From Escherichia phage PNJ1902: a stretch of 64,000 nucleotides of DNA. Below, piece after piece: positions 42,549 through 48,262 of the stretch. Where the stretch lies: the sequence record OK254197.1. One strand, 5' to 3'. A model generated the notes under the pieces. It was not told where the DNA came from. It ran no database searches and worked only from the letters and a program-made list of their open reading frames with translations. The position numbers and the translations under genes are program-made. Each line of letters opens with the position of its first letter. Position 1 is the first letter of the stretch.

Positions 42549-45312
42549 CTAGCTCTGCCATTGCTTCATCATGCATATGTTTCTCCTCATCAGTCATAAA
42601 CTTATATGGGATTGGCATACACTCGATTTTACAATAGGTTCTGTACCAGTCTACAATATTCTCCGTGTTCATATCCTTACCAATACCCATCATACCAAGA
42701 TACATTCTCGCATATTTTGGGTTAGCACTCTGACCTGTTTTAAGGAAGAAATCTTTCTTCTTACCTTTCAGAGCTTCTATGAATGGTTTGATAGTGACAT
42801 TTGAACACTTCTTAATATCTTCCCAGAACATCTCGTGCATTTTATGGAAGAATGCCGCTCGATCATTCGGTTTATCTTTGATATATTGTTCAACGTGCTC
42901 AACTGTTACATCTTTAATAGACTCAAGATGATAGTAGCGAACAAGAAGTAGTTTAGCCTCATACGCATCTGCATGGCGTGGAGCACAATAATCAGGAGTT
43001 GAATACAAAATGGCTTTGATTCGCTCTTCCGTATACTCTTTTCCTGCACCTTCGATAGTTCCCCAGCTTTCACTGAAAATATCAATAGTTGCACCCTGAT
43101 CAAGCAAGTAATAACGTAAGGTACTAGTATAGTTTCTAGATTCCAGCTCTCTACGACGTGCGTATAATTGCTGTGCTAACTCCAGCCAACCTTCATCAAT
43201 GTTATATTGTTCAGAACCTGCGGAGAATCCACTCGTAGATTTATCAATAAAATAATAAATGTTCTGAGCGCCACGGTCGCGCCTGATTGCTTGGAAACGC
43301 ATGTTTGGCGCTTGGTTACTGGTTCTAGTAATAACGAATACGTTATCAAAGTAGTTGAAGTCAACGCCACTCGTTACGGATGGACTACATAATAAGCAAT
43401 CAATTTGTTGATCAATTAGCTCATTAGTTGTGTAATCCAGAATACGTCGAATATCTACATCAGACGTAGAATTTGAGTGGATTTCCTTAACTAGGGCACC
43501 TGTATTACGACGTAATGCCATACCCTTCTCATTCAGTTCATCCGGCCCACAGTCAGATACTAGGATAGATTTCTCACCCATCTCTAGAGAAGTCTGAAGT
43601 GCAACCCAAATACTGGATTCATCCGGGAACTCATAAGCATGAGCTTTTGACAGCATCTTACGGTGATGGTTGTAAAATGCAACCGGTTTATCAAAATCAA
43701 TTAGAGAACCGTAGGCTTCAATCGTCTCAGCACTAATATCACCATCAGATAAGATTACAGTTTTAGCTGTCATGAGGATGTCACGTAGAACTTGAATACA
43801 TTCGCGACGTTGTTTAACAACGGGGGCGAATAATAGATCATTCATTACAGCGTCACATTCATCAATAAAAATGGTGTCTATTTGACCAATAAAACTCTTG
43901 AACTTATGCAAAGAGTGAATAGTTGTGGACATACGGTCAATAGCGCCACGCTTAAAATTAAGCATATCTACAGACTTATCATATTGTCCTGCACTAAATT
44001 TCTTAGCATTTGAAGATACCAGCGCTCTAGTATTTGTAACTGCTAAAAAGTTGCCAGGAAGAACACCTGCGTCCAGCCATTTAGTTACTGCCGTAGTTTT
44101 ACCAGTACCAAGACTTGCCTTAACAAATGTTATATGGCCTTTTGGGGGCACAATGTTAATCTTCAGGTATGGAACTTCTGGTGGAGAATCCACTTCTAAT
44201 TTCTTGAGTGGAACACCTTTCAGATTTAATGGAATCTCACGTTTAGAATTATTAACAAACGCTTTGAGAGCCTGCTTGCGACCGTTATTAAAGTAATCTT
44301 GAATATTACGACTATTATCTTTAGTTGCAATATATTCAGATAAAGCGGGTTTAATCTCACGTTCTAGCCATGCGAAATCAACACCATCCTCTAATGCTCT
44401 ATGGTATAGTTTGGGGATAATACGCAAGTACACCCCATCCTCAGCTTCTTCCAATTCGCTGATGGTTTCTTCTACTTTATCAGACGCGATCTTTTTGCCT
44501 TTAATTTGGTCAAGTAAGGAATAGAATTCCTCTTTAAACTCTCCTCTAGTTGTTTCATAATCAACCAGATTATTGGGCAAATTTACCTTCGAACCTTTAA
44601 CATACACCAGACGTGGCTTACTCTCCGCTTTAAACGGATCTACAATACCATCGCTAAATAAAGGGTCGGCAAAATAGTGAAGCTGGACAGATGAATAATA
44701 AGCTAAGTCGGCAATGTCAAAACCGAATTTTTGCTTACTACTATCGTTGATGGATGTAAATAAGAACTTTAGCTGACCCTGAGTTACCTTGACGTTAGAT
44801 TCTAGCATTAAGTGCATTCGGATACCTGGTTTTAGGCCAGCCGAAGATGATGCATGAGCAATAAACCCTGCATCAAGAGGAAACATGTCCTCACTAATAC
44901 TATTCAACATCTTAATAATGTGGCGGGCCATGCCTACAAGATTAAACTTGTCGTACCCACCGGTATCTAGGATACCATCCACGTCCATAGCAATAATATT
45001 GCTGGGGTTGGATACATTAAAGTTACCTTTCTTACGCCGCACGTTATTTTTAGGTGCAAGACATCGACCTCGTACCGCAACGATATGAGGATCAGACGTT
45101 AAACGTCTCATAAGTGGTAACATTTCGGCAAGGCTTTGCGGGTCATGCTCTTCTATTACATCAAATTTGAAGGGCATAGAGGCTGGTTTACCTTCTGGAT
45201 GCTCTTTCGAGAATCGCTTGGCAAAGGTATAATCCTCCGCTTTGATTTCTCGCCAAATACCTGTTGCTAAATCACGAGAAAATCCGGCGTGACCTTGAAG
45301 AATAGAAAACAC
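42523..45312 (-). CDS. Large P-loop NTPase, putative replication-associated helicase / origin-binding-type protein; GTG start
   Basis: 929 aa; Walker A ASLGTGKTT and Walker B IFIDECD; RBS AGGAG 7 nt upstream of GTG. Confidence 0.75.
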   Translation of the reverse strand: MFSILQGHAGFSRDLATGIWREIKAEDYTFAKRFSKEHPEGKPASMPFKFDVIEEHDPQSLAEMLPLMRRLTSDPHIVAVRGRCLAPKNNVRRKKGNFNVSNPSNIIAMDVDGILDTGGYDKFNLVGMARHIIKMLNSISEDMFPLDAGFIAHASSSAGLKPGIRMHLMLESNVKVTQGQLKFLFTSINDSSKQKFGFDIADLAYYSSVQLHYFADPLFSDGIVDPFKAESKPRLVYVKGSKVNLPNNLVDYETTRGEFKEEFYSLLDQIKGKKIASDKVEETISELEEAEDGVYLRIIPKLYHRALEDGVDFAWLEREIKPALSEYIATKDNSRNIQDYFNNGRKQALKAFVNNSKREIPLNLKGVPLKKLEVDSPPEVPYLKINIVPPKGHITFVKASLGTGKTTAVTKWLDAGVLPGNFLAVTNTRALVSSNAKKFSAGQYDKSVDMLNFKRGAIDRMSTTIHSLHKFKSFIGQIDTIFIDECDAVMNDLLFAPVVKQRRECIQVLRDILMTAKTVILSDGDISAETIEAYGSLIDFDKPVAFYNHHRKMLSKAHAYEFPDESSIWVALQTSLEMGEKSILVSDCGPDELNEKGMALRRNTGALVKEIHSNSTSDVDIRRILDYTTNELIDQQIDCLLCSPSVTSGVDFNYFDNVFVITRTSNQAPNMRFQAIRRDRGAQNIYYFIDKSTSGFSAGSEQYNIDEGWLELAQQLYARRRELESRNYTSTLRYYLLDQGATIDIFSESWGTIEGAGKEYTEERIKAILYSTPDYCAPRHADAYEAKLLLVRYYHLESIKDVTVEHVEQYIKDKPNDRAAFFHKMHEMFWEDIKKCSNVTIKPFIEALKGKKKDFFLKTGQSANPKYARMYLGMMGIGKDMNTENIVDWYRTYCKIECMPIPYKFMTDEEKHMHDEAMAELGARNDSEE

Positions 45313-45810
45313 AACAATACTCCTGTGTTGGTTAATCGAAAATCTTTTCTTTAGGACTATTCAGAAAGAATAGAACAACTATTACTACTGTTTACGTAAA
45401 CATCAATTATCATCAAGCAATATGAATAAGTTATCATATCTCAGTGCTGTGCTCTCTTCGCTCATATACAGAATAGAACCTAGGTCATTGGCCGCTAAGC
45501 CGATTCTATTTGTCCTCACTATCCTATTGGTAGGTGACTACTGTACGTGCCGCCATTCGCTGCTCTTTTCGTTCGCACCCCCATATAAAGCTCTGCCTAT
45601 ATAACGAGCTAAATATGCACGGTTTGGATTTACCTTTCCGAATTCAGGGTACACAGATCACTTAATTGAAGATTAACTAATGCAATATAAACACTAGTAA
45701 TAGTTAAAACAACCCTTAATGGGGCAGCCTAACTGTTCCGTATCGCGGATTGTAAACAAGAAAAATTAGCAAAATCAATTTTTACTAATGTCTCTCAATT
45801 CAATATAAAT

Positions 45811-45839
45811 ATTATATCAAGATTTTGGGCATCCGGCAA
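45811..45839 (-). promoter_or_regulatory. Early promoter firing into an ORF-free leader of about 480 nt
   Basis: TTGCCG - 17 bp - TATAAT followed by ATTTATATTGAATTGAGAGA. Confidence 0.5.
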
Positions 45840-45933
45840 GTAAAATTTTCCGGATGGTGCTATCAGTGTCTTTGAGCATAGAGAAAACCGAGCCAAAATG
45901 ACTCGGTAATCAGAGTTCAGCTAATAAAAATCA

Positions 45934-46323
45934 TTAGTCATTTAATCCCGGAACATAGATCCCAACACGGCTTAACTGTTCTTTAGCTTCTGCGAGAATA
46001 TCTGGAGTGTACTCCCAAATATCATCTTCCACCTGTAAAAGATGGGGCGAACAACCGTCACCAGGCACACGACATATGGCCAAACCACGTGGATGGAATA
46101 TAGAGAAGTTTAGGGCAACAATTAAACCCATAGCGGACAATTCATTCCAGTCCATCTCCCACTCCCTGGCATATCCAGATAGGAAAACGCCAATGCATGG
46201 ATCATCTATTTGCTGCTCAGGAAAAGTGAAGGAGGCTTGTCTTACCCCCAACCAACGTTGTAGCAGCTTCTCCGCACGTTTCACCAAACTAGGGTCAATC
46301 TGACGCCAATATACTTGTTCCAT
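45934..46323 (-). CDS. Hypothetical protein (tandem paralog 2)
   Basis: 129 aa; shares PCIG..., EL.xMGL(I/V)(V/F)ALN(F/Y) and C-terminal (I/Y)(Y/M)(V/I)PGL motifs with upstream neighbour. Confidence 0.55.
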   Translation of the reverse strand: MEQVYWRQIDPSLVKRAEKLLQRWLGVRQASFTFPEQQIDDPCIGVFLSGYAREWEMDWNELSAMGLIVALNFSIFHPRGLAICRVPGDGCSPHLLQVEDDIWEYTPDILAEAKEQLSRVGIYVPGLND

Positions 46324-46332
46324 TCTGCCTCC

Positions 46333-46761
46333 TTAAGCAGTTAAACCTGGGATCATATACCCGAAACGGCGAAGTTTCTGAATCCCCTCATTTACTTCTT
46401 CCGGTGAGTAAGACCAACCATAACGTTCATTAACCTGAAAACCAGGAGATTCACTAGTTTTATAGTTAACAACGAGGCGATGCTTAACAGGCATAAACAG
46501 CTTATAATTTAACGCAAAAACTAAGCCCATTTCGTCTAACTCTTTCCAGCCGACAATCTCTTCAAGACCCTCCTCTACCTGAACAATTAAACCAATACAG
46601 GGAGCCTCATCAATATCATCTTTAAAAGCAAAGGAGATTTCGTTATTCTCACACCATATTTTCAAGGAATTAATAGCCTCATTATACAGGCTAGAGGGGA
46701 GAGTACGCCAAAAGTTAACTAAAATTGGGTTAACTTCTTTAGAGAAGACATTATTGAACAT
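46333..46761 (-). CDS. Hypothetical protein (tandem paralog 1)
   Basis: 142 aa; paralogous motifs as above. Confidence 0.55.
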   Translation of the reverse strand: MFNNVFSKEVNPILVNFWRTLPSSLYNEAINSLKIWCENNEISFAFKDDIDEAPCIGLIVQVEEGLEEIVGWKELDEMGLVFALNYKLFMPVKHRLVVNYKTSESPGFQVNERYGWSYSPEEVNEGIQKLRRFGYMIPGLTA

Positions 46762-46763
46762 AT

Positions 46764-47270
46764 TTACACCTTAAATTGTTGTAAGGATTTACACATTTCA
46801 AGATCTGGGCTAAATTCTAGCATATAGCTAACAGCTTTTAAATCTTGAAGATTTATCCCAGTCCTACCGTTGACTATAACCGTTGGATACTGATACATCA
46901 TAGCACCCGCATCATCAAGCACACACCAATGTTTGAGCTTATGATTTTCAACAAAGCGAAGAACAGAATTACCCCTAGATAATCCACCCCCAGTAAAATC
47001 CGTTGTACCAAGAAAACGATCGATAAGACCTAATCTGGTCATAATCTGAACGTTCTCCATTTCATTTCTGACAGAAAACCAAGATGATACTCCAACAATC
47101 ATTATCGGAGAAGGACGAATAAAGTCCTGAAAAGCCTTGAGAAGCGGTTTGAAAACCCAATCACTTCCAAAGAAAATCTTTTCATCATCAGGTGCATGAT
47201 GGTGGGAGATGCTCGAATTGAGCACCCCATCAATATCTAGAAAAATAATTGGAGTATTACTTATTTCCAT
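46764..47270 (-). CDS. HAD-superfamily phosphatase-like protein
   Basis: 168 aa; motif I IFLDIDGVLN (DxDGx), later VLDDAG acidic motif. Confidence 0.6.
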   Translation of the reverse strand: MEISNTPIIFLDIDGVLNSSISHHHAPDDEKIFFGSDWVFKPLLKAFQDFIRPSPIMIVGVSSWFSVRNEMENVQIMTRLGLIDRFLGTTDFTGGGLSRGNSVLRFVENHKLKHWCVLDDAGAMMYQYPTVIVNGRTGINLQDLKAVSYMLEFSPDLEMCKSLQQFKV

Positions 47271-47439
47271 TTTTGTTCCTTTCTAAGAACGTATCATACT
47301 CAACCGTATCAACATATATAACACCATAGTCATCGGATTTATAGTCCATTTCCCACAGCTCACAGCGATAGCACCAACTACCATCCGCCCACACAAATAT
47401 ATCATCGGGATGTGTATACACAGGTTTAACTATGGACAT
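47257..47439 (-). CDS. Small hypothetical protein
   Basis: About 60 aa from internal ATG (MSIVKPVY...); overlaps neighbours in operon. Confidence 0.35.
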   Translation of the reverse strand: MSIVKPVYTHPDDIFVWADGSWCYRCELWEMDYKSDDYGVIYVDTVEYDTFLERNKNGNK

Positions 47440-48262
47440 ATCTGTTTCCCTTGCTTCTCGACACATAAGGTCTACCCTCTAAATGAGCTTCTACACGAGC
47501 AATAAAATTAGGGTCACTAAAAGCATCTACCGCACCTTTACTCCAGTAGGGGATACCACGTTCTTCTAGCTGGTACATCTCACTACGAGTCATACCTTGA
47601 TAGCCCGGTTCCGCCGCTAGGGCACTATCATAGTAGTTAACAACCATAAGTTTCGCAGCAGTCAAATTAAGAACAGGAAATAATTCCCAGTAGAAGTTAA
47701 TTACTTGGTTAGAGCAACCAACCACAATGATCATATCTTGACTGGTAATACCATCAAAAACATTATACATTTCTGCGTATGCAGGAGCATGCTCCCCAAA
47801 GAAGATTACATTAGGTTTAACCCATTTATAATCATCTGGGTCAATAGAATTGTATCCTACATCAATAATCCGTTTATTGCTACTATTGTAGCTATCAGCT
47901 ACAACAACCTCTTTTAAATATCCGTGAATGTGCAGAATGTCACTATGTGGAACGCCAGCACGCTCAATAAGGTCATCAACGTTGGTAGTCAAGTTTACTA
48001 CTTGACCTGGATATTGTTTATACCATTCACCAATACGCAAATGCGCAAGATTGGGTTCAACAGTTTTTAGCTCTTCACGACGCTTGTTGTAAAACATATG
48101 GGTTTTATGGTAAAAATTACCACGAAAGGCATGAATATTACATACTTCTTCTAGGTCATAATCATCCCACAGTGCTTTACCACTAGCAGTATCAGTACGA
48201 AAAGCTCGTACACCACTTTCAACACTCAAACCTGCACCGCTAATAATAATTAATCTACGCAT
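47426..48262 (-). CDS. Sir2-family (sirtuin-like) NAD-dependent enzyme, apparently lacking the zinc ribbon
   Basis: 278 aa; GAGLSVESGVRAFR (cf. sirtuin GAGISxxSGIPxFR), NLTTNVDDLIERAG (cf. TQNIDxLHxxAG), catalytic HG in ILHIHGYL, PNVIFFGE, VVGCSNQV; no CxxC pairs. Confidence 0.75.
   Translation of the reverse strand: MRRLIIISGAGLSVESGVRAFRTDTASGKALWDDYDLEEVCNIHAFRGNFYHKTHMFYNKRREELKTVEPNLAHLRIGEWYKQYPGQVVNLTTNVDDLIERAGVPHSDILHIHGYLKEVVVADSYNSSNKRIIDVGYNSIDPDDYKWVKPNVIFFGEHAPAYAEMYNVFDGITSQDMIIVVGCSNQVINFYWELFPVLNLTAAKLMVVNYYDSALAAEPGYQGMTRSEMYQLEERGIPYWSKGAVDAFSDPNFIARVEAHLEGRPYVSRSKGNRYVHS

Follow-up and report, generated by a model that had tools for sequence, protein, structure and literature searches.

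Introduction

One described setting for the genes treated here is the phage sirtuin neighbourhood, of which three types were distinguished by Iyer et al. (2022; PMC9503650). In 'type 3', typified by Escherichia phage SP15, the sirtuin is accompanied by a HAD protein of the 'Swiss-army-knife' (SAK)-like kind. Section 3.7.3 of that paper predicts, on computational grounds, that sirtuin neighbourhoods clean 2',3'-cyclic-phosphate RNA ends, in a model where the sirtuin acts like KptA/Tpt1 and removes the 2'-phosphate with NAD+; the sirtuin–HAD account given there does not mention the gene pair considered below. This pair, here called A and B, lies in a stretch of 64,000 nucleotides (nt) from Escherichia phage PNJ1902 (OK254197.1), a T5-like phage of the genus Tequintavirus; this whole stretch is hereafter 'the window'. 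The pair is already catalogued, as genes T5p104 and T5p105 of phage T5 (AY692264) and as members of Pfam DUF7415 and PHROG 2502, hypothetical and with no assigned function.

Our literature searches found no mention of 'DUF7415', and the T5 locus tags led only to an unrelated phage genome paper; a 2026 PNAS paper on Bas33 is concerned with pre-early genes only. What is added here is the antiquity of the pair, the degeneration of A, the translational coupling of both genes, a predicted orphan fold, the co-occurrence with the sirtuin and a link to the published RNA-repair prediction. These observations help to plan experiments, the function of the pair being not established.

Two diverged copies of one gene

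Gene A (46333..46761, minus strand; 142 amino acids (aa); orthologue of T5p104, AAU05243) and gene B (45934..46323, minus strand; 129 aa; orthologue of T5p105, AAU05244) were both retrieved from the list of open reading frames (ORFs) where an initial annotation, made from the sequence alone, had placed them. Their description as a divergent (A) and a canonical (B) DUF7415 paralogue draws on ORF, Pfam, PHROG and T5 annotation, on AlphaFold2 (AF2) models and on the ratio of non-synonymous to synonymous substitution rates (dN/dS). The initial annotation had proposed a diverged tandem duplication on account of motifs shared in the same order, and all of these are indeed present and collinear in the two translations (PCIG; ELDEMGLVFALNY / ELSAMGLIVALNF; YMIPGL / IYVPGL). 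The duplication is borne out by BLASTP of A against B (39/124 identities, i.e. 31%, one gap, E=3e-19), by the Smith–Waterman score, which at 153 stands far above chance (2000 shuffles: mean 27.7, standard deviation 4.8, maximum 53; z=26), and by common family membership. Indeed, Pfam DUF7415 (PF24187, gathering score 27) matches A with 123.5 bits and B with 108.5 bits, and both match the PHROG 2502 profile over practically its full length (A: E=2.4e-62, positions 2-134/134; B: E=9.2e-61, positions 4-134/134), with weaker matches to PHROGs 3954, 33705 and 1812. A and B are true paralogues, and a six-frame scan of the window with hidden Markov models (HMMs) detected no third DUF7415 copy.

Some shorter proteins carry the same family name. 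A 74-aa 'DUF7415' protein of Salmonella phage SE11 (BFVD entry A0A5C0CHJ0) and two short homologues, P0058 with 74 aa and P0095 with 66 aa, all match profile positions 5-43, as the N-terminus of gene A does. Such short proteins probably result from truncated or frameshifted calls of gene A in some genomes and do not represent a third member of the family.

Structure prediction, one of the checks put forward with the initial annotation, gave the two proteins the same order of secondary-structure elements: a helix, three strands, a short and a long helix, two strands and a C-terminal helix. The AF2 models are confident, with a predicted local distance difference test (pLDDT) score of 87 and a predicted template modelling (pTM) score of 0.82 for A, and of 93 and 0.87 for B. 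On these models, A and B are predicted to share one compact alpha/beta fold without a solved relative. When one protein and two profiles were compared with the sequences in the PDB, nothing significant emerged (two weak matches, at E>=0.42, for the protein and none for the profiles), and Foldseek returned nothing from the PDB at E<=0.001 and only other DUF7415 proteins from BFVD. There was likewise no match in PADLOC, and nothing near the curated cut-offs in NCBIfam.

A minority of database records give the two genes functional names: 'exonuclease' or 'Phage exonuclease (ACLAME 70)' for A (ESCO30/ESCO40, GEC_vB_N5, T5_ev219), and 'tail tube protein' or 'tail protein' for B (JLBYU43, GSP044, STWB21, DU_PP_V). 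Taken literally, these names would make A an exonuclease and B a tail component. However, no nuclease, tail or tail-tube family was found for either protein in Pfam, PHROGs or NCBIfam, nor any such fold in the structural searches; moreover, both genes sit in an early operon with metabolic genes, and most records call them hypothetical. The names look like propagated annotation errors, and the identities that they imply, lacking family, profile and fold support, are effectively refuted, their probability being next to nil.

A canonical and a degenerate partner

An exhaustive profile search of 1.84 billion cluster representatives yielded 151 relatives; about 20 are Demerecviridae-type proteins of full length, and the remainder mostly match only profile positions ~55-110. 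In IMG/VR, the two-domain alignment detected close T5 relatives only. A core of ~45 aa recurs in over 130 cluster representatives, which come from proteobacterial phages and prophages, and Pfam DUF7415 matches 134 of 137 remote homologues. An HMM built from these 137 sequences places the core at residues 57-98 of B (46030..46155, minus strand; MDWNELSAMGLIVALNFSIFHPRGLAICRVPGDGCSPHLL), where the family consensus is kept (64 bits), and at residues ~70-111 of A (46429..46554, minus strand), where it is degenerate (31 bits).

The consensus of the core reads I-D-W-N-x-x-S-x-x-G-L-I-x-R-I-N-x-E-I-L-H-P-L-G-L-A-x-x-R-x-P-x-T-G-x-S-P-G, and N, S, G-L, I-N, H-P, G-L-A, R, G and S are invariant in 27 sequences and nearly so in 137. 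B, with the signature DWNELSxxGLxxxxNxxxxHPxGLAxxRxxxxGxS, retains all the near-invariant residues, whereas A keeps only W..EL..GL...LN plus P and S, and is without the H, the G-L-A and the turn G. Since the H-P-x-G-L-A stretch is replaced in every A-type orthologue (MPVKHRLV in the window; LLGRNSQI, RERGIYVL and LLRESYIP in others), A is a degenerate partner, in which the fold is kept and the signature surface of the family lost. Both proteins are acidic (pI, the isoelectric point, 4.7; net charge -7 and -8).

This pattern could also be read in terms of a small enzyme or ligand sensor, the core providing a pocket for catalysis or for a small molecule (nucleotide or ADP-ribose derivative), with B active and A a pseudo-enzyme. 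Indeed, polar N, H, R and S, together with W and E, are invariant or nearly so across 27-137 homologues, A has lost specifically those residues while keeping the fold, as is usual for an active and pseudo-active couple, and the domain occurs fused to nucleotide-processing enzymes (see below). However, it comprises just ~45 residues and matches no known enzyme or nucleotide-binding fold, and the conservation of G, P, N and H may have a purely structural reason (helix cap, beta-turn). We regard this reading as quite improbable.

The 53-position Pfam model matches two stretches in each protein, the better one lying in the N-terminal half (A 15-65, B 3-51). An internal tandem of two DUF7415 units per protein was considered and found no support: BLASTP of the halves gave no match, hhalign of the N-terminal half against the core gave a probability below 1%, and the HMM of 137 core domains matches only A 70-111 and B 57-98. 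An HMM of the N-terminal half found 27 domain matches among the single-domain homologues, hardly above the 18 in shuffled controls, and the N-terminal and C-terminal helices are only weakly similar (hhalign probability 24-52%). The double match is owing either to a Pfam seed that mixes two regions or to a very old internal repeat below the detection limit.

An old, coupled and constrained pair

In a neighbour-joining tree of 22 two-domain proteins, the A-type copies form one clade with 95% bootstrap support, and the B-types fall elsewhere. As this clade takes in the A proteins of the window, an Epseptimavirus-like phage, Yersinia phiR2-01, Sugarlandvirus and two metagenomic Demerecviridae, the duplication is ancient, not recent, and older than the split of these genera. 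The gene order recurs as well: nrdD, a small ORF, Sir2, a small ORF, A, B, a non-coding gap and the D2 helicase gene follow one another in Klebsiella Sugarlandvirus and in two diverged metagenomic Demerecviridae, and in a third metagenomic contig, which is rearranged (A, B, then Sir2, without nrdD), the adjacency is kept. Pectobacterium phage DU_PP_V (Mccorquodalevirinae) has a single copy at the same place, and since this copy is of the B type, B is probably the ancestral form.

At the DNA level, the 1.8-kb region around the pair has 96.7% identity with Salmonella phage SE11 and 92.6% with T5, and it has matches in 525 phage records. A survey of related phages, also put forward with the initial annotation, found the pair in ~525 phage records and both genes in 28/28 T5-like IMG/VR loci, always at a fixed position in the early nucleotide-metabolism and replication cluster; its distribution is not universal, as some Vibrio and Aeromonas T5-like loci are without it.

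At the junction of the two genes (46324..46335, minus strand), the stop codon TAA of A overlaps the strong Shine–Dalgarno sequence of B (TAAGGAGGCAGA), 9 nt before the ATG of B and in frame. The same arrangement recurs in 28/28 T5-like loci, with a spacer of 9-10 nt, AGGAGG or AGGGGG, and the stop of A overlapping the Shine–Dalgarno sequence (TAAGGAGG...), and in distant lineages (Sugarlandvirus, three metagenomic loci) A and B themselves overlap by 4-13 nt. These features, usual signs of translational coupling, indicate that A and B are coupled. Pairwise dN/dS values are low (A 0.08-0.09, B 0.12-0.16); both genes are thus under strong purifying selection and encode real, constrained proteins.

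Co-occurrence with the sirtuin

A and B are the final two cistrons of an early operon, all on the minus strand, in which a sirtuin gene, a small ORF and a HAD phosphatase gene precede them and a terminator follows. The sirtuin (47426..48262; 278 aa) is a Sir2-family protein orthologous to T5p100 (PF02146, E=8e-25; PHROG 2162, E=1e-121). The gene directly upstream of the pair (46764..47270; orthologue of T5p103) had been taken for a HAD phosphatase in the initial annotation, rightly so, as it encodes a HAD phosphatase of the 'Swiss-army-knife' RNA-repair type (PF18143 HAD_SAK_2, E=2e-20; PHROG 1818). The window thus has the sirtuin plus SAK-type HAD neighbourhood described as type 3, with A and B in the same gene string.

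Within Demerecviridae, sirtuin and DUF7415 are both present in Tequintavirus (T5, HdH2), in Sugarlandvirus, in Hongcheonvirus loci and in three metagenomic lineages. Both are absent at the locus in Vibrio phages KIT04 and D360 and in Aeromonas phage TS3, which keep the D2 helicase gene together with nrdD, PhoH and ribonucleotide reductase (RNR) genes and from which the whole block of Sir2, (HAD) and DUF7415 is gone at this place. In the Demerecviridae loci examined, sirtuin and DUF7415 are therefore co-inherited. Database searches give a similar picture for Vibrio: D2 orthologues were found in 906 records, 357 of them from Vibrio, and this genus is absent from the listed organisms in the searches with A, B and the core. 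The sirtuin matches only 50 Vibrio records, and the three that were sampled come from genomes larger than 220 kb. In TS3, ~1.6 kb upstream of the helicase gene is unannotated.

The small ORF between the sirtuin and HAD genes (47257..47466, minus strand; 69 aa) belongs to PHROG 5116, of unknown function, and overlaps the 3' end of the sirtuin ORF by 41 nt. In T5 st0, two small ORFs (T5p101, T5p102) stand there and the sirtuin gene ends slightly differently; as the operons are collinear in other respects, this is a small indel or annotation difference. A small ORF stands at the same position in two metagenomic loci (L003, L005) and in a Sugarlandvirus locus (L009).

Other phages have sirtuin genes in a different context. 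Escherichia phage JES2013 and Salmonella phage PVP-SE1 carry the string RNA ligase, hypothetical protein, Sir2, nucleotide pyrophosphohydrolase and DNA ligase, which matches the 'type 2' sirtuin RNA-repair neighbourhood as outlined in PMC9503650.

The core domain in other phages and prophages

A Pfam scan of the 137 homologues showed that the majority are stand-alone proteins. The fusions are to dATP/dGTP pyrophosphohydrolase (2), DUF3850/ASCH (2) and, once each, thymidylate kinase, Phage_Cox, DUF551, PGDYG and a ClpX-type zinc finger. In 80 IMG/VR loci with the core, mainly P2-like prophages, the domain is stand-alone, fused to P2-Orf83-like DUF5405 (15 loci) or joined to an unassigned N-terminal domain, and its neighbours include replication gene A, DksA-like zinc finger and DNA methyltransferase genes; homologues of P2 gene A are the commonest, being immediately upstream of the domain in 17 loci and immediately downstream of it in 14. 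In P2-like phage S164, the core is a C-terminal extension of an Orf91-like DUF3850 protein. T4-like phages have it in various places: nrdD and nrdG flank it in Jiaodavirus, it comes directly after the RNA ligase gene rnlA in Aeromonas phage Ah1, and it is one gene past a Nudix gene in Cronobacter phage Cronuts, with an RNA ligase gene ~3 kb upstream. The phiCTX copy, orf7, stands between the homologues of L and X, and in a satellite-like island it shares a gene string with a Toprim primase gene, beside an integrase gene. The common thread is early expression with genes for nucleotide metabolism, replication and the processing of nucleic acid ends, with no constant partner.

Such surroundings would also suit an accessory of replication or of deoxyribonucleoside triphosphate (dNTP) supply: DUF7415, as a small module for protein-protein contacts, would dock on a phage initiator or helicase, or on a conserved host replisome protein, and the T5 pair would serve D2 and the replication cluster rather than the sirtuin. 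The prominence of gene A among the neighbours, the fusions to DUF5405 and DUF3850 (in P2 itself, the genes for Orf83 and Orf91 flank gene A) and the Toprim primase gene are in line with this proposal, as are the pyrophosphohydrolase and dTMP-kinase-like fusions and the position in Jiaodavirus. In all Demerecviridae with the pair, moreover, it lies directly upstream of the gene for D2, an origin-binding-type helicase. However, a scan of the window found an intrinsic-terminator-like hairpin followed by a T-run 27 nt past the stop of B (45887..45907, minus strand), which marks the operon end, and after it a promoter-like site (45839-45811) that starts the D2 unit; the corresponding promoter is annotated in T5, and the corresponding terminator in phage HdH2. 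B and D2 would thus belong to different transcription units. In addition, D2 does not need DUF7415, as it is kept without it in the Vibrio and Aeromonas T5-like loci examined, and the neighbourhoods in T4-like phages are heterogeneous. A replication role for the pair is thus rather unlikely, if a serious contender.

The interval between B and D2 has features of its own. From the stop of B to the D2 start at 45312, ~620 nt (45313-45933, minus strand) contain no convincing ORF, and the promoter-like site implies a D2 leader of ~490 nt. A long-range inverted repeat, whose arms at 45377-45409 and 45663-45705 are complementary at 94% over 18 nt and at 78% over another 18 nt, delimits a domain of ~250 nt, and the RNA fold of 45313-45805 (minus strand) has a minimum free energy (MFE) of -129.1 kcal/mol (z=-3.3 relative to shuffles). 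Rfam offers no match for the region 45313-45933, which could serve as a structured leader for regulation or as a replication-origin-type element beside the origin-binding-type helicase gene.

The initial annotation had suggested a role in host interaction or anti-defence. On this reading, A and B would bind and neutralize a host protein, for instance an immune sensor or effector, independently of the neighbouring enzymes. Small, acidic, early-expressed proteins with a fold without known relative would fit such a factor, and so would the single-domain relatives, which are small accessory ORFs scattered over many unrelated phages and satellites, the moron-like position in phiCTX, and the P2-like prophages, where the domain lies near orphan DNA methylases and at the early-operon end, the place where P2 has tin and old beside Orf91. 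Yet the pair has a fixed position, is near-universal in enterobacterial T5-like phages and shows low dN/dS, unlike a variable and fast-evolving counter-defence locus, and no sequence or fold similarity to a characterized anti-defence protein was detected, the fold searches having covered the PDB (an anti-defence HMM library was not searched). The suggestion has no positive evidence, nor is the pattern the signature of a variable accessory island, and we consider it unlikely.

Proposed role of the pair

The role that we tentatively prefer, at rather less than an even chance, is that of a non-catalytic heteromer assisting an early nucleic-acid- or nucleotide-processing module, most likely the sirtuin(-HAD) module. 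A and B would be made in equal amounts and act together, B carrying the ancestral binding surface and A serving as a degenerate structural partner; such a heteromer is suggested by the likely equimolar synthesis together with the pattern of one canonical and one degenerate copy. The complex would be an adaptor, or a regulatory or ligand-binding module, for co-encoded early enzymes rather than an RNA-binding or catalytic protein, as suggested by the acidic character, by the smallness of the core and by the number of its fusions to enzymes of nucleotide metabolism. The module served would in turn heal RNA ends by the KptA-like, NAD-dependent 2'-phosphate removal predicted in PMC9503650. The same core domain may act as an adaptor in other phages, in fusion with nucleotide pyrophosphohydrolase, nucleotide kinase and ASCH-like domains. 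For T5-like phages, the sirtuin(-HAD) accessory is the most economical place for the pair.

Several points weigh against this proposal. The linkage to the sirtuin within one family may reflect inherited synteny only, and Sugarlandvirus, DU_PP_V and the metagenomic loci have no HAD gene. Outside Demerecviridae, the DUF7415 domain is not beside a sirtuin; in P2-like prophages its neighbours are replication gene A and DNA methylases instead of genes for RNA repair. Conversely, rV5-like and PVP-SE1-like phages carry a 50-63% identical sirtuin without detectable DUF7415: no gene annotated as DUF7415 was found near the sirtuin in the loci examined, core-domain matches in non-T5 Escherichia records are few, and the association does not extend to the sirtuin clade in general. 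As for the proteins themselves, their acidity (pI 4.7) argues against direct RNA binding, and a ligand-binding or catalytic site would likewise account for the invariant polar core residues N, H, R and S.

A more specific version of the sirtuin link would make A/B a heterodimeric, orphan-fold subunit of the phage sirtuin system, in which B binds the substrate or an ADP-ribose-derived ligand and A is the scaffold, the two together directing or gating the sirtuin (with HAD) in early infection. So detailed a scheme is a long shot. If it were true, the stand-alone DUF7415 proteins of P2-like and T4-like phages and satellites would represent a general targeting or ligand-sensing module for phage enzymes that process nucleotides and RNA ends.

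Significance and comparison with known systems

DUF7415 spans T5-like, T4-like and P2-like phages and satellite-like elements of diverse Proteobacteria, with a predicted fold that has no solved match, and the T5-like lineages examined keep a coupled canonical and degenerate pair beside a sirtuin whose predicted role is NAD-dependent RNA repair. As T5 is genetically tractable, A/B and the sirtuin are open to a direct test of the RNA-repair prediction, which could also give a first function for the domain. The unsupported names in databases ('exonuclease', 'tail tube protein') are flagged by the present analysis.

Among described systems, the locus resembles the sirtuin neighbourhood of type 3. 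SP15, its typical representative, is itself T5-like and carries an A protein 90% identical to that of the window. Unlike in type 3, however, the HAD gene is dispensable in several relatives that keep the sirtuin and DUF7415.

The likeness to P2-like phages is of another kind. In these, the core is fused to the C-terminus of homologues of P2 Orf83 (DUF5405) or Orf91 (DUF3850/ASCH-like), beside gene A, whereas the T5-type A and B are without a DUF5405 or DUF3850 part. P2's own Orf91 has 109 aa compared with 151 aa for the S164 fusion, P2 is not among the listed core-domain matches, and Orf83 and Orf91 are themselves uncharacterized.

Other DUF7415 members are mostly single-domain proteins of 70-110 aa, or have the domain fused to other modules. 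Those of Demerecviridae add an N-terminal half made of a helix and three strands, and a C-terminal helix ending in G-x-x-I/V-P/E-G-L/W; unlike most members, they come as an A/B pair in which the core motif of A is degenerate. The direct orthologues of the window's pair are those of T5, where both genes are annotated as 'hypothetical protein', and the differences are insubstantial: order and operon position, between T5p103 (HAD) and the D2 helicase gene, are identical, A has 142 aa in both phages, and B has 129 aa in the window compared with 130 aa in T5.

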